Below, in pieces: positions 1,900 to 38,821 of a stretch of 64,000 nt of DNA. Source of the DNA: an uncultured candidate division Zixibacteria bacterium (GTDB lineage: Bacteria > Zixibacteria > MSB-5A5 > RBG-16-43-9). Within the stretch, counting starts at the first letter, position 1. Each line of letters begins with the position of its first letter. Made by a program: the position numbers and the translations under genes. The stretch is taken from positions 1,176,520 through 1,240,519 of the forward strand of contig OY970208.1 of the NCBI GenBank assembly GCA_963713865.1, given 5' to 3'. Under the pieces are notes generated by a model. That model was not told the DNA's origin, searched no databases, and saw only the letters and a program-made list of their open reading frames with translations.

Positions 1900-2502
1900 C
1901 GAATAAGCTACCTCTCTTTTATCTGAAGACTCGCTTTTGGTAAGTTTATTTCCTGAACTAAGTCAAAAAAGAAATTAACACTTGAGTTTGGGTAAGGCAA
2001 TAGTTTTTTTAGTATTAAGATTTTTAGTGGTATAACAATATATGCTATATAGGATTGTTGCTTAATTCTTTTTTGGAGATATCTTATTTAAGGATAGGGT
2101 TTGTCCCTGTCCTAATCCTAATAAGGACAACAATATGAGTTGTCTCTGAATTAAATTCATCATCAACTAAAGAAATTTATAATAAAAGAAGGGAGCCTGC
2201 TTAGAAGACTATCTGGCGGGGGCACAAGTCTATGTCTAATTCTTCACTTAGCGGAATTACCTGTGCGTAGTCCTCGAAAGAGCAGCGCTCCCAAAAAAAG
2301 TTATCCTCAAAAAATATAAGCAACTTTTATGCCAGTTGTATATAAAAAGGAGACAATTGTAACCTTATGTTTAACATATACTTGACTTTAACTTTCTTTC
2401 TTTGCTATAACATGTTAATTTAAAAATGTTCAATTTTTAGACACTTTAGATCTTTACAGATTATATCCTTAATTCTATCTTAAAGTTACATAATAGTTTT
2501 TT

Positions 2503-2519
2503 TGTCAATTATATTGACA
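2503..2519. promoter_or_regulatory. Perfect 17-bp palindrome TGTCAAT-tat-ATTGACA, candidate operator / -35-like element about 180 bp upstream of ORF 2697
   Basis: Arms are exact reverse complements; lies in an 800-bp non-coding AT-rich region. Confidence 0.35.
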
Positions 2520-2696
2520 CTAAAACAGCTTAAGTGTTTTTGTCAGAGGCAGATTAACCTCGCCTGGGCGATTTTGAATAGGGCTACACTATAAAATAGA
2601 AGAATAAATAATATTATACCTGACAAACTTACCTTTAACAAATTCAAAAAATCTACTTTTATGATGGAAAAGATGAAAAATAACCAGATTTAGAAG

Positions 2697-4013
2697 ATGA
2701 AAATCAAAAAATTTTTCAAAAATTTAATAATAAAAGGAAGCCTTCCATCTAAAAAGGAAAACAACAAATCTTTTCCCCTTCAGGAAAAGGTTCTCAGCTC
2801 ATACAGACATCTACCATCAACACCACTTTCTAAAGGTTCATTTAGTTCTGAGGATAATGATATTATTCTTCCATCCCGGCAACTTTACGATCGTACCTTT
2901 AAAATCAAGCTTTACAGATTATTAAGAGATAATATTCCTGCAATAAATTCAGCTATCTGGACCTGGACCAGGCTCTCCTCTGCTCCCTCTTCTTACAAGC
3001 TAAAAGGGAGCGAGGACCAGGATATTCTAAATCAGGCTTCAAAAATAATCTCGAACTTAGACCGAAGAGTCTACCAGCACTCCTTCCACAAATTTGGTGG
3101 AATTGAAGCTTTGCTTACTCAATTCTTCTACTCCCTTTTCACGGATGGGGCGGTATGTGGAGAATTAGTTTTAAACCCTTCGCAAAATCGTTTAGATAAG
3201 TTCTATTTTATCGATCCCTCTACCATAAGGTTCAAGTTATCCAGAACAAACTATGAGCTTTATCAAGAAATTGATGGGGAAATGATTAGACTGAATCAGA
3301 ATTCAACTTACTATTATGGTTTGGACCCTGATCCGGAAGACCCTTGTGGGAGAAGCATTTTATCCTCTATCCCTTTTGTTACCAGGATTGAACAGAGATT
3401 GCTTTCGGATATGCAGAAAAGTATGCATAATGCCGGGTATCATCGTCTGCATGTAAAGCTAAAACCACCAGAAAGGTTGCCTTCTGAATCGAATGAGGCT
3501 TATATCGGTAGAGCTAATCGTTATTTTGAGGATACTGTGGAGATGATGAGAAAAATTTCGGTGGAAGATAATCCGATAACCTGGAACGATGTGCAGATAG
3601 ATTATATCGGACCCCAGGGGGGTTATGCTGCCACCACTTCCTGGTATATTAATCATAAAGCCTTAATTGAGGAGATCTGTGCAGGTGTTCACTTAGATCC
3701 GTTTATCTTAGGGTATTCTTATGGAGCGCCCTATAGCTGGGCACAGATAAAATATGAGATGATTCAAAGGAACATAATCTCCATCCAGGCTTCCGCTAAA
3801 CGCTTTATGGAATGGATACACAATTTAGAGCTGGCGCTTCAAGGGTTAGATTTAGAATACGAGCATCATTTTGATAACCGAAAGACTTTTGGTCTATTAG
3901 AACAAAGACAGGCAGAGAAAATCGCTCTGGAGAATATTATTTTGAAAAAGAATACCGGATTGATAGATGAAGAAGAGGCGAAAAGGGAAATAAAAATAAC
4001 TGATGACAAATGA
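2697..4013 (+). CDS. Hypothetical protein co-oriented directly upstream of terminase large subunit (portal-like role possible but unproven)
   Basis: 438 aa ORF, no motif I can recognise; size and adjacency to TerL are the only arguments. Confidence 0.4.
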   Translation: MKIKKFFKNLIIKGSLPSKKENNKSFPLQEKVLSSYRHLPSTPLSKGSFSSEDNDIILPSRQLYDRTFKIKLYRLLRDNIPAINSAIWTWTRLSSAPSSYKLKGSEDQDILNQASKIISNLDRRVYQHSFHKFGGIEALLTQFFYSLFTDGAVCGELVLNPSQNRLDKFYFIDPSTIRFKLSRTNYELYQEIDGEMIRLNQNSTYYYGLDPDPEDPCGRSILSSIPFVTRIEQRLLSDMQKSMHNAGYHRLHVKLKPPERLPSESNEAYIGRANRYFEDTVEMMRKISVEDNPITWNDVQIDYIGPQGGYAATTSWYINHKALIEEICAGVHLDPFILGYSYGAPYSWAQIKYEMIQRNIISIQASAKRFMEWIHNLELALQGLDLEYEHHFDNRKTFGLLEQRQAEKIALENIILKKNTGLIDEEEAKREIKITDDK

Positions 4014-4176
4014 CAGATAAATAAAGGTTCAAAGGTTCAAAAACTCAATGGTTTAAAGGGAAATGAAAAAAGAAGATTAAAACATAGAAGTTAAAATGTT
4101 TCAGTGCTTATCAGTTCCTATGAGGTAGAAATACCTCGGGGATTTATCCCCTCTCCTTTTTAAGGAGAGGGTCGGA

Positions 4177-5628
4177 GTGAGGTTATTTTTTCGCTCACAT
4201 CTTTTTTTCATCCTTCGGCATCCGTCGTTAGTAGTTATTTTTTTAATCTGTCATCTTCTATTTTGCTTTCGTTATTTTCTATTTGTAGGTGATTTATTGG
4301 ATAAACAATATCTCTGGAGAAAAGCGCTTAAAGACCCGCTCTATTTTGCCCGTGAATTCTTAGAGATTGAGCCTCATCCCGGTCAGGCCCTCTGGCTAAA
4401 GAGCTCAATCAAACCAGAAAACGCACTGCACACCGGGAATCGCTGGGGGAAAAGCCTTTGCCAGGCGATAAAAATCGTTCATCGCTCGATTTTTAAAATC
4501 CGCAAGACTAGATATAATACCACAGAAAAATATACGGCAGTAAATGTATCTGTAACCCTTGACCAGGCAAAGATAATCTTCGATAAAGCAGTCGGTTTTT
4601 TAAAAGGGAAAAAGATATTAGAGCCTTTGGTTCAGGATATAAGGTCAACTCCGTTTCCACATATCGTCTTCTCCAATTCTGCGGTTTTCTGGGCACGCTC
4701 CACTCAGAGAAAAGGGGAATATCTTTTAGGATATGATTATGACTATTGTAATTTCGATGAAGTTGCCTTTGAGCCTCATCCTGAATATGTGGTTAATAAT
4801 GTGATTATGATGAGACTTTGTGATCGAGCCGGGATGTTAGATTATACTTCTACCCCTAAGGGTAAAAACTGGTTCTATCGCAAATGCTTAGAGTTAAAAT
4901 CTCATCTAGAATATGGATATGTCCAGGGGGGCGACACCCGGGAAAATTCTCATATCTCCACTGAGTATATTCAAAGGAAATTGAAAACACTGTCAAATTC
5001 CAAGGTCGAGCAGAATATAATGGGAAATTTTATAGATGACCCGGATCAGGTTATAGAGGAAAAATATATCAGTCAGGCAACCTCAAATTCTTCTGGACTT
5101 TCTTCTCCTAAAGAAGGACATCGCTATTCAACTGGATGGGATTTAGCGCGAAAAAGAAACTATACCGTAGGGATAACTTTAGACATTTCCAGCAAGCCAT
5201 ACCAGCTGGTCTCCCTGGAGAGATTTCAAAGGGGTTGGAAAGAGACGATTGAGTCGATCAGGAAAAGAAAGAAGGATTATGGGGGAGAGGTTTTGATAGA
5301 TTCAACTGGTTTAGGGGATGTGATCTTAGAGGAGTTAAAAGATATAAATGTTAGAGGGTTTAATTTCGGGGAAAAAGGGGGAAAGGTTAAATCTGAGCTT
5401 ATTGCCAATTTGCAAAAGGAGCATTCATTAAGTAATATTGCTTATCCTTATGTTGAGTTTATAGAAGAAGACGGTTCCCTGTGGTCTTTACAGGATGAAT
5501 TAAGGGATTTTACTTGGGATACTAAGGAAAACTGTGATGCGGTGATGGCACTAGCGTTAGCCCTGTGGAATGTGAGAACCCCGGAACAGCTTCCCCTGAT
5601 TCTGGTGCCGAGGGTGGAAAAAATCTAA
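4177..5628 (+). CDS. Phage terminase large subunit-like ATPase-nuclease (TerL); true start probably an internal TTG near 4296 preceded by aggtga RBS
   Basis: Q-motif (EPHPGQ) about 15 aa before Walker A-like GNRWGKS; Walker B-like YCNFDEVAF; coupling motif YTSTPKGKNWFY; C-terminal RNase-H-like acidic clusters (GWDLARKRNYTVGITLD, LIDSTGLGD, TKENCDAVMALALALW). First 40 codons overlap a repeat element and look non-coding. Confidence 0.7.
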   Translation: MRLFFRSHLFFILRHPSLVVIFLICHLLFCFRYFLFVGDLLDKQYLWRKALKDPLYFAREFLEIEPHPGQALWLKSSIKPENALHTGNRWGKSLCQAIKIVHRSIFKIRKTRYNTTEKYTAVNVSVTLDQAKIIFDKAVGFLKGKKILEPLVQDIRSTPFPHIVFSNSAVFWARSTQRKGEYLLGYDYDYCNFDEVAFEPHPEYVVNNVIMMRLCDRAGMLDYTSTPKGKNWFYRKCLELKSHLEYGYVQGGDTRENSHISTEYIQRKLKTLSNSKVEQNIMGNFIDDPDQVIEEKYISQATSNSSGLSSPKEGHRYSTGWDLARKRNYTVGITLDISSKPYQLVSLERFQRGWKETIESIRKRKKDYGGEVLIDSTGLGDVILEELKDINVRGFNFGEKGGKVKSELIANLQKEHSLSNIAYPYVEFIEEDGSLWSLQDELRDFTWDTKENCDAVMALALALWNVRTPEQLPLILVPRVEKI

Positions 5629-5669
5629 ATTATAGAGGCAAGGGTGTATGGCATTACATCCCTATTTAT

Positions 5670-6314
5670 CTAAAAAGGTAGAATCTCTTTTATCTTTGGC
5701 AGAAAAGTCTTGAGAAAATCTTCAAGCACAAGCTGAGCTTCTTTTTCCGAGATCTGGTTTAGAGACAGGTTTATGCGGACAAGGACGGCATCAGTAGGTG
5801 CTCTTTTTAACGAATTTAAAACCAGATCTAGTTTCAATCCTAACTCGCTGGTTATTATCCTGCTTCTGGTTTGAAACCAGTAATACATAACTTCTCTGGA
5901 CAGCTTATCGGAGATCAAAAGTTTATTTACCTTAAGGTCTGAGCCTGTATCTGTTTTGATCAGAATCTTCCTTCGACTCATAATCTTCCAGCCGCTACCG
6001 GGCAGGCAGTTCTTGGGGGAGTGAATCTGTGAACCATATTTCTGGCTCTTAAAATAGGCGATGAAAAGCCAGAGTTCTTTTCCTTCACTACTGGTATATT
6101 TCCTGAAAGCATAAGTATCAGCTTTGAGGACCTGGTTGGTCTCATCAGAAAAGAAATATTCCTGACCGTTCCAGTCTGCGTACTGAAGAGGGAGAGAGGA
6201 AAAGAGAGGGAATCTCTTCGATTCGACTCGAGAGTAGCGCAGGATATTTATCAGTATCCCGGTTAGAACAAAAAGGATCAGGACTATCCAGAATTCTTTT
6301 TTTTTAAAGCCCAT
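5670..6314 (-). CDS. EpsI-family protein (exosortase-associated EpsI-like), N-terminal TM anchor
   Basis: 214 aa; N-terminal TM helix; motif IHSPKNCLPGSGW matches the HSPxxCLPGxGW signature I recall for EpsI; no exosortase gene in window. Confidence 0.45.
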   Translation of the reverse strand: MGFKKKEFWIVLILFVLTGILINILRYSRVESKRFPLFSSLPLQYADWNGQEYFFSDETNQVLKADTYAFRKYTSSEGKELWLFIAYFKSQKYGSQIHSPKNCLPGSGWKIMSRRKILIKTDTGSDLKVNKLLISDKLSREVMYYWFQTRSRIITSELGLKLDLVLNSLKRAPTDAVLVRINLSLNQISEKEAQLVLEDFLKTFLPKIKEILPF

Positions 6315-6363
6315 AACTTTAACCTCAGAGGAAATATAAAAAAGGATAGGGAAAAGTCAACCC

Positions 6364-7839
6364 TTAGAGTATAAATTCAGAAAGGTCTATCTTATATTTC
6401 TGGGGATCCAGGCACCTCACTGGCATCTTAGATTCCTCCATTTCCGCAGGATATTCTGAGCTTTGGCCCAAATCCAGAGTCTCAGGTGTTTTTTTAATCC
6501 CATTCTGGTCTGCGATAATTTTTAGTTTGGGTAGAGTGAGGTTCTCCGGATTATTTTTTATCACTATCCCTATCTCCCCGGTATTTAAAAGGACCAGGGA
6601 GCCCACCGGATAAACCCCCAAGATATTTATAAAAAGTTTCAACAAGCAGGAATCATAAACTTTATCCCGGGCATAAAACATCTTCCTCAAAGCTTCATCC
6701 GGCAGATAAGGGGTTTTAATATATACCCGGCCCGAGGTCATAGCATCATAAGCATCGGCAATGCTTACTATACGGGAGAACAGGTTTAACTCTCTTTTGT
6801 TTTTAACCTTAGGATAACCGGAAAGGTCGAGGTTCAGATGGTGTTCAAAACTAACCAGCATAGCCCTCATTGAAAAGGGATCGAACTTTAAACTGATTAA
6901 AAGGTTTTTTACTCCCCAGATCGGGTGTTTTTTCATCCTCGTCCATTCGGATTCATTGAATTCAGAAGGTTTGTTTAAAAGCTCCAAGGGTAAATTTGTT
7001 TTTCCAATATCGTGAAACAGGGCGGCAAGGCCTAATTCGCTTAACTTCTTTTTGTTTAAACCCAATCTCAATCCCAGGATTAAGGAGAGGATACAGACGT
7101 TGGTAGAATGGAGATAAGTATATTCATCGTAGTTTCTTAAAGAAGAAAGCTCTAAGAAGATCTCCTCGTTCAGCAGGAGCTGATCTACTAAAGATTGAAC
7201 TACCCTTTTCACTTTAACCAGATTTATCTCTTTACCTGCCTGAGCTCTCTGGCTGATCTCTCGCACCATAGAGAAAGCTTTGGTGAAAGTTTTTTTCGCA
7301 ACCTTTCGCTGGTCTAAAGAGATCTGGTCAGCTTCTAAAACGGAAGACTCTTTTTCCTTTTCCAGGTGAAGGTTCTGGAGATTTTCCTCAAAGATTTTTT
7401 TCTCCAAACTTTCAAATGGCTCCATATCCTCAGTATCTATTTGTGCTAGAATATAGATCAAGCTTTGCAAATCCTTCTGGGTTAATCCGTCCTCCAGAGC
7501 AAGTTTATAGATCTTCAGTTTTTTCAAGAACTCCAGGATAAATCGGCTGGCAACATAATTTTCGAAATCGAATCTCAGACGGGCTTGATTTAAAAACAGA
7601 TAACCTTCCTGGGTGCTTAAGTTAAGCTCACCCTCCTTTTCAATTAACTCCCTGACTAAATCCATCAGGGGATGGATCTGTTTCTGGAAAGCGGCATTAT
7701 TCGGTTCGTATATAAGGGAGGTCTTAAGGGTAGAATAGAATAGATTTATAAACACCTTCCCTTTTTCTAAAAGATGTAAAGACGCCTCTTTCTTCTCTTT
7801 TCTTTCCTGAGCATTAACCGGTTCAACTAACTTATTCAA
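6364..7839 (-). CDS. HD-GYP domain c-di-GMP phosphodiesterase-like protein with about 200 aa N-terminal domain of unknown function
   Basis: HDIGK, HHLNLDLSGYP, SIADAYDAMTSGRVY motifs. Confidence 0.8.
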   Translation of the reverse strand: MNKLVEPVNAQERKEKKEASLHLLEKGKVFINLFYSTLKTSLIYEPNNAAFQKQIHPLMDLVRELIEKEGELNLSTQEGYLFLNQARLRFDFENYVASRFILEFLKKLKIYKLALEDGLTQKDLQSLIYILAQIDTEDMEPFESLEKKIFEENLQNLHLEKEKESSVLEADQISLDQRKVAKKTFTKAFSMVREISQRAQAGKEINLVKVKRVVQSLVDQLLLNEEIFLELSSLRNYDEYTYLHSTNVCILSLILGLRLGLNKKKLSELGLAALFHDIGKTNLPLELLNKPSEFNESEWTRMKKHPIWGVKNLLISLKFDPFSMRAMLVSFEHHLNLDLSGYPKVKNKRELNLFSRIVSIADAYDAMTSGRVYIKTPYLPDEALRKMFYARDKVYDSCLLKLFINILGVYPVGSLVLLNTGEIGIVIKNNPENLTLPKLKIIADQNGIKKTPETLDLGQSSEYPAEMEESKMPVRCLDPQKYKIDLSEFIL

Positions 7840-7853
7840 ATTTCATACTCCCG

Positions 7854-9602
7854 TTATTTGCCGAGATCTTTTCGGCTCCTCTCCGAGGTGGAGACTTTTT
7901 CCCACAAAGCTTTAGCTTGTTTCTGGATTTTCTTTTTACTTTTTAAACCAAACTCTTTTAGACTCTCCTGGCTTAAGGAAGTCCCGATTGAGGCTAAAGA
8001 TTTTAAAGCCAGAGAAGAAGTCTCCGTTTGTTTTTCTCTTTTGAACCAGACTTTTTTCAGGATCAGCTTCTTGAGCAAGGGGATAGCCTCATCTTTACCT
8101 ATCTTGGCCCAGGTTTCCAAAAGGGTCTCTTTCTCCACACGATTTTTATCTCTGAAATCTTTTCTCAAAAATAGAGCTGAGACGTAATCCAGAGCCTCCT
8201 GGGTAGGTAACCTCTGGCTTAATACTTTCGCTGCTTTGAGCCTGAGCCTTTCATCCGGATCCGCTAAGACATTCAAAAGAATGGAAGTTCCCTCTTTTCC
8301 CTCGATGTGAGAGAGAGCTTCTAAGGTCTCTTTCCTTACTCTTATATCCTCATGGGCAATGGTTTTCTTCAGATAGGGGAGGGCAAGGGGGGAGCTGATT
8401 CTTCCGAAGATACCTACGATATTTCTGACCACATACCATCTGCGGTCATAAATCCCTTTGCTTAAAAGATTGATATTCTTTTCCCCTACATTCTCCAGAA
8501 TCGAGCAGACCATCTTCCGGCTGGCAAAATTTTCCAGTTCACCTAACATATCTACAAAATCAGGGATACTGTTCCAGCTTAAAAGGCTAAGATATTTTTT
8601 AACTGAGAAAAGGTCTAAACTTATTTTCTGATTCAAAATCTGGGTCAGGATTCTCATCCTCTCTTTATCTCCAGCCCGGTCAGCTGCTTCTTTAATCCTT
8701 ATGGTTCTATTTGACTGACCTGTATCAGCTTCAGTTTTCTCTAAGTTTTTCAGAAGAAGCAATAACTCTGAGGCTAAATAGAAGTCCCCTTGACCGATCA
8801 GGGAGTCCAAAAGTTTTTCAAAAAGCTTAACTGTCTCTGAAAACTCGTGGTATTCCTTTTCGCTGAAAAGGATTTCCTCTAAAACGGCGAAGCTCTCTTT
8901 TAAGGGTTCGAAGCTTTCGTCTTTCTCTAAAAGGGTTTTTAGCTCTTCTAATTCCTTCTCCGGAACAAGGTCTAAATCCCGGAGAAACCTATCGACTTCA
9001 ATTTTATGGGGTAGCTCTTTCAAATTTTCAGTTTTTCCTTCTAAATTTACCTCAGAATAATAAAGCTTCTTTAAGTCTTTTTCCCCTACCGGTTGAGGTA
9101 AATCGACAAGTTCCTCGCTTAAGAATTCATCCACCACTAAAAATTTTATATGCGCTAATTCTTTTTCCCAGAAAAGGGTAACCAGATCGTCCTCTGGCAG
9201 AGTAGATTTCAGACCACGGCTTATTATCTCCAGAAAAGCAAAAAGCTCTTCCTGGTCCATTCCTTTCTGGAAAGCGATCTCCCTGATCCCATCCCGGTAA
9301 AAGGCAAAGGAGATCCCTTCATCTTTTTTCTCCTCTTTTACGACAACTTTATCTTTATATAATAGTTGAGATTGAGCCACCCTGAATTTAAGCTCCTCGT
9401 TTTCCTGCAGGTAAGCTGAGAGTTTTTTGAACAGGTTATTCTTGAACTCTTTAGGTATAGGATTATCCGCTGGATAGATGCAGAAGATCTTGAGAGTCTT
9501 GATCAAAAGGTTGGTTATCTCCTGAACCCCTTTGGGGAGCTCAACTGAGAAGTTCTGGAACTCTTCTGATTCCGCTTTAACAATTCTTGATTCTTCAAGC
9601 AT
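7854..9602 (-). CDS. HEAT/PBS-lyase repeat protein
   Basis: 582 aa, Glu/Lys-rich; C-terminal repeated helical units (RVRKETLEAL..., ERLRLKAAKVL...). Confidence 0.5.
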   Translation of the reverse strand: MLEESRIVKAESEEFQNFSVELPKGVQEITNLLIKTLKIFCIYPADNPIPKEFKNNLFKKLSAYLQENEELKFRVAQSQLLYKDKVVVKEEKKDEGISFAFYRDGIREIAFQKGMDQEELFAFLEIISRGLKSTLPEDDLVTLFWEKELAHIKFLVVDEFLSEELVDLPQPVGEKDLKKLYYSEVNLEGKTENLKELPHKIEVDRFLRDLDLVPEKELEELKTLLEKDESFEPLKESFAVLEEILFSEKEYHEFSETVKLFEKLLDSLIGQGDFYLASELLLLLKNLEKTEADTGQSNRTIRIKEAADRAGDKERMRILTQILNQKISLDLFSVKKYLSLLSWNSIPDFVDMLGELENFASRKMVCSILENVGEKNINLLSKGIYDRRWYVVRNIVGIFGRISSPLALPYLKKTIAHEDIRVRKETLEALSHIEGKEGTSILLNVLADPDERLRLKAAKVLSQRLPTQEALDYVSALFLRKDFRDKNRVEKETLLETWAKIGKDEAIPLLKKLILKKVWFKREKQTETSSLALKSLASIGTSLSQESLKEFGLKSKKKIQKQAKALWEKVSTSERSRKDLGK

Positions 9603-38712: not shown

Positions 38713-38771
38713 TTTATTTGTAGAGACGCATAGAATGCGTCTCTTTATTATTCCCCTCCTTTTCAAGGAGA

Positions 38772-38821
38772 GGGTCAGGGTGAGGTCATAGTACTAAAAA
38801 AGGAACAGACAAGATGTCTGT
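38772..38821 (+). repeat. Dispersed repeat copy: GGGTCAGGGTGAGGTCA ... ACAGACAAGATGTCTGT
   Basis: See 17592 and 17826. Confidence 0.75.

Follow-up and report, generated by a model that had tools for sequence, protein, structure and literature searches.

We report an orphan portal-terminase gene pair in a 64-kb stretch of DNA from a candidate division Zixibacteria bacterium (contig OY970208.1; the whole stretch of 64,000 nucleotides is called the window here). Comparative genomics by itself was enough to place the pair within a capsid system that is conserved in more than 200 species-level genomes of this uncultured candidate phylum. The pair consists of a gene for a phage portal protein and a gene for the large subunit of terminase (TerL). 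It very probably belongs to a conserved, vertically inherited and selectively maintained capsid gene set, and it is probably the packaging module of a domesticated, multi-locus particle system that resembles gene transfer agents (GTAs) and is conserved across Zixibacteria. We think it moderately likely that the gene set makes DNA-containing particles for the host, and we propose more tentatively that it is a bona fide GTA.

In the mechanical listing of open reading frames (ORFs), the pair appears as an ORF of 438 amino acids (2697-4013) and an ORF of 483 amino acids (4177-5628), both on the plus strand. A minus-strand GNAT gene (766-1899) lies on one side and a minus-strand DUF3485/EpsI-HD-GYP-HEAT operon on the other, with the TerL and EpsI genes convergent. 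The GC content of the pair (0.39-0.41) is that of its surroundings. When every core family of the related clusters described below was used in tblastn, the portal and TerL genes were the sole matches in the 64 kb. A preliminary description of the window had presented two adjacent and isolated plus-strand ORFs flanked by a GNAT gene and an EpsI/HD-GYP/HEAT operon, and the ORF listing, the tblastn search and Pfam agree with it on these points. It had also stated that no capsid genes are present. This holds for the window in the tblastn search but not for this type of genome, as the sister metagenome-assembled genome (MAG) GCA_964570765.1 has a major capsid protein (MCP) gene elsewhere.

The 438-amino-acid ORF had been left unrecognized in the preliminary description. 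We found that it matches the PHROGs family phrog_3753, "portal protein," with an E value of 5.7e-36 over residues 70-432. Pfam-A gave no match for either protein of the pair, and a sequence-profile search of the PDB with the portal gave none. An AlphaFold2 model of the portal was built on 49 homologues (mean pLDDT, 63.5; core, >85; TM, about 0.39), and the top 50 Foldseek matches of this model in the PDB were all phage portals (best E, 2e-11; probability, 1.0). The best match was the portal of phage 812 (8qem; E, 2e-11), and the matches also include the portals of G20c (4zjn), P23-45, HK97 (8fql), T4 and HFTV1 and the neck structure (6toa_B) of RcGTA, the GTA of Rhodobacter capsulatus. Since all top fold matches are portals, the modeled fold identifies the 438-amino-acid partner as a phage portal. 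The comparison with portal folds had been suggested beforehand, together with the possibility that this protein would fall in an unrelated housekeeping family and that TerL would fail profile searches; a portal family and terminase profiles were matched instead.

The second ORF matches the large-terminase family phrog_2 with an E value of 2.8e-27. In the PDB, a profile of its homologues finds the nuclease domain of Thermus-phage TerL (G20c/P74-26; 5tge/5m1f) at an E value of about 1e-11 and the ATPase domain of P74-26 (4zni/4znj) at about 1e-5, and some homologues reach Pfam Terminase_6N. The full set of TerL motifs ascribed to the ORF in the preliminary description was confirmed by these profiles and by conservation: among 118 homologues with 53-97% identity, conservation of the motif residues is at least 98%, and the catalytic motif columns are invariant in a 40-sequence alignment (Table 1). 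TerL is predicted to have an N-terminal ASCE ATPase with Walker A, Walker B and coupling motifs and a C-terminal RNase-H-like nuclease with conserved acidic residues, of which D282, D335, D341 and D414 are the putative catalytic residues. The start at GTG 4177 given earlier had to be revised. The TerL homologues are 443 to 445 amino acids long, an AGGTGA Shine-Dalgarno (SD) sequence precedes TTG 4297, and similarity to a related locus (L009; related loci are referred to by such numbers) begins exactly there, with unrelated DNA further upstream. The first 40 codons of the 483-amino-acid ORF (4177-4296) are a spurious 5' extension, and conservation, the SD sequence and the homologue lengths place the start of a 443-amino-acid TerL at TTG 4297.

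Relatives of both proteins were then collected from 5.8 billion proteins, which yielded 834 for TerL and 278 for the portal. The best 120 relatives of each protein were 45-97% identical to the query, and every named relative belonged to candidate division Zixibacteria, some on contigs of 0.3-1.6 Mb. When a single genome of each GTDB species was scanned with the MCP, 212 species had relatives. No two of the 80 loci listed share an assembly, and complete chromosomes account for three of them. Wherever the portal and TerL genes both fall in a fetched locus, they are adjacent in this order, except that an ORF of about 190 amino acids lies between them in a few lineages and that L071 has a TerL stub with no portal nearby. 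The preliminary description had raised the question whether the two-gene module is always isolated in related genomes. It is not, as most species have a cluster of about 14 genes.

The core of this cluster was defined by all-against-all clustering of the ORFs of 90 loci and was confirmed in 80 further metagenomic loci. It is a colinear set of about 14 genes and about 15 kb in the order portal, TerL, F2, F9, F2b, F4, MCP, F1, F3, F6, F10, a variable gene, F5 and F12, with portal-TerL at its head in most species. The MCP matches phrog_3922, major head protein (E, 3e-61), and is an HK97-type major capsid protein; F4 matches phrog_4588, "virion structural protein," and F2 is phrog_16951-like. Comparison of all core ORFs in representative loci with Pfam and/or PHROGs turned up no family of integrases, recombinases, repressors, polymerases, primases or endolysins. 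In L037, L011 and L063, every ORF that lies within the conserved host flanks was included, and the matches were solely of head, packaging or unknown structural type. In these scans, the cluster thus resembles GTAs in having genes for packaging and structure but none for integration, replication or lysogeny.

Several core families gave no informative match in PHROGs or Pfam (F1, F2b, F5, F6, F10 and F12, together with F20, F28 and the ORF considered as a candidate for the small terminase subunit, TerS), and PDB profile searches with F1, F3 and F5 returned just weak sialidase or Ig-like noise. F1, the best conserved of the unknown families, was modeled with a pLDDT of 94.7 as a sialidase/lectin-type beta-propeller with a beta-sandwich. 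Its best solved match is 9efk_M, a chain of the portal-tail complex of phage LME-1, and its viral matches include tail-spike or fiber-like proteins, and the model would be compatible with an appendage of the virion that binds glycans. An Ig-like segment is present in F3. Transmembrane helices occur in F9 and F12, for which a holin-like role is conceivable. F10 is a coiled-coil protein of about 100 amino acids. The ORF of about 190 amino acids between portal and TerL (L046, 5759-6334; similar in L054, L143, L148, L151 and L169) has a CxxC...HxxxH N terminus, a coiled-coil C terminus resembling F10 and no profile match; F10 and this ORF could be small-terminase-like proteins. The spacer between portal and TerL in the window has no ORF at this position.

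In one clade, F2 is fused to an ATP-dependent DNA ligase (PF01068; E, 6e-29) and a LigD-phosphoesterase-like domain in a protein of about 780 amino acids. F2 has 270 to 600 amino acids and no ligase elsewhere, and the fusion protein could be a capsid-targeted DNA-repair enzyme. In L004 (12954-14645 and 20067-21177; the same in L005), an S49/SDH-type protease gene and a PIN-domain gene are inserted after TerL, and the MCP gene is split by a frameshift. The S49 protease was considered as a core prohead protease and rejected, because it is present in that lineage only and is either an insertion or a lineage-specific gain.

The cluster has a fixed position on the chromosome. The same host genes bracket it in many loci whose portals are just 38-47% identical to the L007 reference portal: genes for TPR and PEP-CTERM proteins lie upstream, and genes for a dockerin-domain protein, lipoyl synthase and a response regulator (RR)-GAF-HD-GYP protein lie downstream. 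In another clade, RecG and a urocanase/LiaF/PspC block lie upstream of the cluster. No integrase family was found in or beside the cluster, a result obtained without a systematic search for att repeats. The pairwise identities of portal, TerL and MCP follow those of the flanking host TPR gene F13 with Spearman coefficients of 0.79-0.81, which is as close as host genes follow one another (0.58-0.86). MCP identity never falls below about 54% across the sampled species.

The genes are also under strong purifying selection. Intact and broken copies number 161 and 1 for MCP, 63 and 3 for TerL, 132 and 3 for F1, and 146 and 0 for F4; at least 95% of the MCP, TerL, F1, F3 and F4 copies are intact, and the portal N termini are too variable to score. 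In the clade of the window, the ratio of nonsynonymous to synonymous substitution rates (dN/dS, or omega) is lowest for the relocated MCP, at 0.02-0.06; TerL has values of 0.05-0.10, and the portal has a value of about 0.17. The housekeeping neighbors have omega values of 0.06-0.31, with dS in a similar range. These values, with the fixed position and the correlated identities, argue that the cluster is inherited vertically with the host and is kept by selection.

The window differs from most species in that its cluster appears to have been split into separate chromosomal loci. The window, L006 (97% identity) and L009 (87% portal identity) have in common the GNAT gene, the 800-bp spacer, portal, TerL, EpsI, HD-GYP, HEAT and DUF2007. 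The MAG of L009, GCA_964570765.1, has its MCP on a different contig, CAZMZF010000041.1 (L024), where the MCP locus adjoins YkuD, TldD/PmbA and DUF5916 genes, and the metagenome of L006 has a 94% identical MCP on L104. In the wider clade of the window (L104-L113), the order F2-F9-F4-MCP-F1-F3-F6-F10-F5-F12 is kept with no portal-TerL upstream, and sister clades are still contiguous (L115-L122, L126 and L130). In three of these split-off loci, a gene for a secreted repeat protein of 473 to 520 amino acids sits on the opposite strand between MCP and F1 (L104, 1706-3256; L109, 5269-6831; L110, 5199-6620). Interruptions or separations arose independently in L001, L002, L019, L020, L033, L052, L060 and L086, the pair is inverted in L025, and the complete chromosomes CP070839.1 and CP070766.1 have a capsid module without adjoining portal-TerL. 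Dispersal of the genes over several loci, another feature of GTAs, can thus be followed within one MAG (L009/L024) and within one metagenome (L006/L104), as far as the assembled contigs indicate.

GTAs resemble remnant phages that have packaging and structural genes only; they are often encoded at multiple loci, some of one or two genes, are inherited vertically and have several origins (PMC11841831). On this description, we read the pair in the window as the packaging module of such a system. The lack of means of integration or replication, the fixed position, the co-divergence with the host, the purifying selection and the dispersal are together characteristic of domesticated viruses (viriforms), and of GTAs in particular. 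The preliminary description had considered a domesticated packaging-like ATPase-nuclease or a part of an unrecognized element. Both ideas were essentially right but incomplete, since the two genes do not form a module of their own: they make up the packaging half of a larger cluster, of about 14 genes, and are split here from the rest.

A more specific proposal, to which we give somewhat less than even credence, is that an independently domesticated viriform of about 14 genes runs throughout Zixibacteria, has been inherited vertically since near the base of the phylum from a phage ancestor without close free-living relatives, and has been dispersed in some lineages. It would add unusual features, namely a head-module protein that carries a fused DNA ligase/phosphoesterase in one clade, and a gene for a sialidase-like propeller that adjoins the capsid gene. 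The relatives in free phages are distant: portals are 20-30% identical, with 20-25% for those of Bacillus/Brevibacillus phages, the nearest MCPs, from unannotated gut phage contigs, are 30-35% identical, and TerL identity in IMG/VR does not exceed about 41%. The viral contig L097, of 55 kb, has TerL, portal and F3 with about 30% identity in the usual TerL-then-portal order and looks like a genuine distant phage relative.

The way in which the system might work can be pictured from the known roles of TerL, portal and HK97-type capsid proteins in tailed phages. The ancestral state would have been one colinear cluster of about 15 kb from portal to F12. A rearrangement would then have moved portal-TerL between the GNAT gene and the EpsI/HD-GYP/HEAT operon, with the capsid module staying at another locus. 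Some host signal would cause co-expression of the dispersed loci, and the capsid protein would build procapsids around a portal dodecamer. TerL would cut DNA with its RNase-H-like nuclease, and its ASCE ATPase would drive the DNA through the portal. Finally, particles that carry appendages for glycan binding (F1 and F5) would be released, and the resulting GTA-like viriform would serve the host without replicating itself.

Among known systems, RcGTA-type GTAs of Alphaproteobacteria are similar in that they have a phage-derived packaging and structural cluster of about 15 kb without integrase or replication genes, are inherited vertically under purifying selection over a large clade, and have extra loci off the main cluster (PMC11841831). 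The RcGTA neck structure 6toa is among the fold matches of the Zixibacteria portal, but beyond the shared TerL, portal and HK97 folds the two systems have no detectable sequence relationship. RcGTA has the order TerS-TerL-portal, whereas in Zixibacteria the portal gene precedes TerL. Known host regulators of RcGTA are CtrA and GafA. The Zixibacteria system also differs in host phylum, has no recognizable siphovirus tail genes and is known here from genes alone. VSH-1 of Brachyspira hyodysenteriae, a GTA with a divided genome whose structural genes, derived from a domesticated phage, are split over chromosomal loci with host genes between them, parallels the split in Zixibacteria, as far as the work of Stanton et al. 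(2009) is summarized in PMC11841831. The VSH-1 lineage is unrelated to the Zixibacteria system. For VSH-1, tail and lysis genes have been identified and function has been proven by experiment, and neither holds for the Zixibacteria system. The Thermus phages P74-26, P23-45 and G20c provide the closest solved TerL structures (4zni, 5tge and 5m1f), and their portals (4zjn, 6ibg and 6qjt) match the Zixibacteria portal in fold, with 13-15% identity in structural alignment; unlike the Zixibacteria gene set, they are autonomous lytic siphoviruses with complete genomes.

Several observations weigh against a particle system that transfers DNA. Among the scanned cluster ORFs, none was recognized as a tail tube, sheath, tape measure, baseplate or endolysin gene or confirmed as a small terminase gene, and delivery and release are therefore unexplained. 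Particle formation, cargo DNA, release and delivery are all deduced from genes alone. The capsid module is known from the closest relatives of the window rather than from its own genome, and co-divergence was judged from identity correlations rather than tree reconciliation. The MCP is frameshifted in L004/L005 (two contigs from different samples), F1 is broken in L024, L061 and L022, and the complete chromosome CP070766.1 (L071, 6236-6403) keeps a 54-amino-acid C-terminal TerL stub next to F2, which looks like the scar of the rearrangement that removed portal-TerL from the cluster. Function may have been lost in some lineages. Relatedness is also mosaic among close strains: GNAT of the window is 98.9% identical to that of L009 and 95% identical to that of L006, and its portal is 99.1% identical to that of L006 and 87% identical to that of L009. 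Such identities among the three loci indicate recent homologous recombination among close strains.

A domesticated system could serve a function other than gene transfer, such as DNA export for the biofilm matrix, a nanocompartment or protein delivery, or a defense against phages, by decoy or by abortive infection, in which the TerL nuclease is used. This alternative shares all evidence of domestication with the GTA-like system that we favor, and it could accommodate the DNA ligase fused to F2 in one clade, the putative glycan-binding propeller of F1, the neighboring genes for exopolysaccharide/PEP-CTERM and cyclic di-GMP (HD-GYP) functions in both arrangements of the cluster, and the lack of a recognizable tail. 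PADLOC models, however, match none of portal, TerL, F2 (F2-ligase), F1 and F5, and an intact packaging ATPase, nuclease and portal point to DNA encapsidation as the core activity, whatever use the packaged DNA might then have. We regard a function other than gene transfer as rather unlikely, although it is the strongest of the rival explanations.

The cluster could also be an active temperate phage or a satellite, for example, a capsid-forming island like the phage-inducible chromosomal islands (PICIs), that seems vertical through co-speciation with its host. Satellites of the cf-PICI type encode head and packaging genes with no recognizable tail, and head genes without tail genes are what we see here. 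In addition, IMG/VR lists one cluster as a viral contig (L091), and the 55-kb viral contig L097 has a portal, TerL and an F3-like gene. But satellites are mobile, with integrase, regulatory and replication modules; none was found in the Zixibacteria cluster, whose scanned region between the conserved host flanks lacks genes for an integrase, an excisionase, a repressor, a primase and replication. Even between deeply diverged lineages the cluster keeps its place on the chromosome, and each of the 80 assemblies listed has a single locus. Purifying selection persists where the cluster is split or interrupted by host genes, and packaging and capsid genes at different loci could not move as a unit. 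A prophage or satellite would be expected to have an integrase or recombinase with att repeats and variable insertion sites; no integrase family was found here, with no systematic search for att repeats, and the GNAT and EpsI neighbors of the pair recur in three relatives. We consider an active phage or satellite improbable.

Cryptic or defective prophages likewise leave chromosomal phage genes without a complete phage around them, but they are strain-variable, decay neutrally and are often compositionally foreign, whereas the pair is clade-wide, selected and compositionally native. A decaying prophage remnant, one of the possibilities in the preliminary description, would make the pair two leftover genes without current function, and this very improbable explanation, which the isolation of the pair in 64 kb, its absence from Pfam and the rare broken cluster-gene copies in other lineages might suggest, is largely refuted by omega values (0.05-0.17) like those of housekeeping neighbors, catalytic motifs invariant in the 118 homologues, the native GC content, an identical position in relatives at 87-97% identity, and the adjacency and integrity of the same two genes, at 50-97% identity, across hundreds of species-level clusters throughout the candidate phylum.

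A functional GTA-like system would give a widespread lineage of sediment and groundwater a major means of exchanging DNA, or would serve some other capsid-based function there. Only a handful of lineages have GTAs that are known from experiments (RcGTA-like, Bartonella, Brachyspira, Desulfovibrio and Methanococcus). Whether GTA-like elements are outliers or widespread has been posed as an open question; loci of one or two genes make GTAs nearly invisible to genome scans (PMC11841831). A Zixibacteria-wide viriform would add a new lineage to the GTAs, one that seems to extend over a candidate phylum. A functional system would also offer a natural series, from contiguous through interrupted to fully split, for studying the break-up and co-regulation of domesticated viral genes. 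A full-text literature search found no description linking Zixibacteria to GTA, conserved prophage, terminase or capsid genes. The system is apparently undescribed and an independent lineage with its own architecture, of a kind (GTA/viriform) that is already known. Some clusters are already counted as viruses: L091 (= L181), IMGVR_UViG_3300027896_005586, is a chromosomal Zixibacteria cluster catalogued as a virus in IMG/VR. Such entries inflate provirus and host-link statistics.

Table 1. Features of the portal-TerL locus and of related loci (window coordinates unless a locus is named)
Feature	Position	Strand	Basis or remark
Portal protein gene, 438 aa	2697..4013	+	phrog_3753 profile, AlphaFold2/Foldseek fold, dN/dS about 0.17
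TerL gene, 443 aa, start TTG 4297	4297..5628	+	phrog_2, PDB profile, homologue lengths, SD
Q-motif Q30, TerL			at least 98% in 118 homologues
Walker A/P-loop G47-N-R-W-G-K-S53, TerL	4435..4455	+	invariant in 40, at least 98% in 118
Walker B D154-E155, TerL	4756..4761	+	invariant
Coupling motif S185-T186-P187, TerL	4849..4857	+	invariant
Predicted RNase-H-like nuclease domain, TerL	5140..5538	+	invariant columns; aligns to G20c/P74-26 nuclease structures
Nuclease acidic residues, TerL	D282, 5140-5142; D335, 5299-5301; D341, 5317-5319; D414, 5536-5538		invariant
Flanking genes TonB_C, GNAT, DUF3485/EpsI, HD-GYP and HEAT			Pfam
AT-rich non-coding spacer upstream of portal, 797 bp	1900..2696		GC 0.28-0.33
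Conserved structured block, about 105 nt	2191..2292	+ (uncertain)	candidate small RNA or leader element
Copy of block, L006	8015-8116
Copy of block, L009	about 9489-9597
Copy of block, L025	about 1786-1890	-
Inverted repeat TGTCAAT-TAT-ATTGACA	2503..2519		7+7 around 3-nt center; candidate operator
Upstream ORF of 10 codons, MMEKMKNNQI-stop	2661..2693	+	ends 3 nt before portal ATG
Portal-TerL spacer with two terminator-like hairpins (4138-4151, 4175-4196)	4014..4296	+	pattern scan
Terminator-like hairpin after TerL stop, between convergent TerL and EpsI	5642..5661	+	pattern scan
F2-ligase fusion	L007 14432-16765 (= L011 6086-8416); also L004, L008, L013-L017

The non-coding DNA around the pair contains candidate control elements that may have been acquired with the relocation. 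The preliminary description was correct that about 800 bp of AT-rich DNA lies upstream of the pair, yet this spacer also holds a conserved folding block. A spacer of about 800 bp is found upstream of the portal in L006 and L009 too, and its left half, with the block at 2191-2292, is about 90-95% identical in L009. The block itself folds with a minimum free energy of -38.8 kcal/mol (z score, -2.9) and aligns with about 90% identity in L009 and 85% in L025, always about 400-440 nt upstream of the portal gene and on the strand of the portal. Read on the opposite strand, it has a closing stem followed by a U-rich run, and it could alternatively be a small RNA transcribed toward the GNAT gene. Rfam, at the gathering threshold and at E values up to 1, gave no match in the upstream spacer, and three sequences yielded no measure of covariation for the block. 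A covariance model searched over the loci found no copies beyond the clade of the window and L025, and the element is therefore not a general feature of the system.

The perfect palindrome reported earlier at 2503-2519 exists as an inverted repeat with arms around a short center, but by itself it is statistically unremarkable. It is invariant in the window, L006, L009 and L010 amid diverged surrounding DNA, and it is absent from all other loci searched, including the split-off capsid locus. Co-regulation of the split loci through this palindrome was considered and is unsupported, as the relocated capsid gene has no copy of it in its upstream region. The 55 nt before the portal ATG, with the 10-codon upstream ORF, are invariant across the window, L006 and L009.

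The hairpins in the spacer between portal and TerL possibly act in attenuation between the two genes. In L009, this place is taken by GC-rich hairpins that are unrelated to those of the window, and the two spacers have only the first 27 nt and the SD/start region in common. A piece of about 40 nt from this spacer has weak copies at 38748-38789 in the window and in L002, L029, L078 and L105, which suggests a small dispersed palindromic repeat.

The neighbors of the pair were also compared with those of the contiguous clusters. EpsI and HD-GYP genes adjoin TerL in the window (5670-9602), and the ancestral layout has a PEP-CTERM protein gene upstream and an RR-GAF-HD-GYP regulator gene downstream (L037, 19221-20459; L063, 2835-3605). 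The presence of exosortase/PEP-CTERM and HD-GYP (cyclic di-GMP) neighbors in both arrangements may be a coincidence or a regulatory link.

Several MAGs that bear the cluster are labeled Ignavibacteria, Terriglobales, Acidobacteriota or Calditrichota in their records, probably through mislabeling or mis-binning. Among the close relatives of the window, the L006 contig, which is 97% identical, reaches about 6 kb past the left end of the window and has ThyX, RNR, ACPS, PRTase and TonB genes. The preliminary description had considered that the rest of a prophage might lie immediately upstream of the window start; this left extension has cellular genes and no prophage, and a prophage continuing upstream was rejected on the gene content of L006 and L009. 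The TonB gene sits between the PRTase and GNAT genes in the window and in L006. In L009, its place is taken by a gene for a type IIG (MmeI/Eco57I-like) restriction-modification protein of 1150 amino acids (4573-8025), which is a strain-variable defense insertion adjoining the locus.

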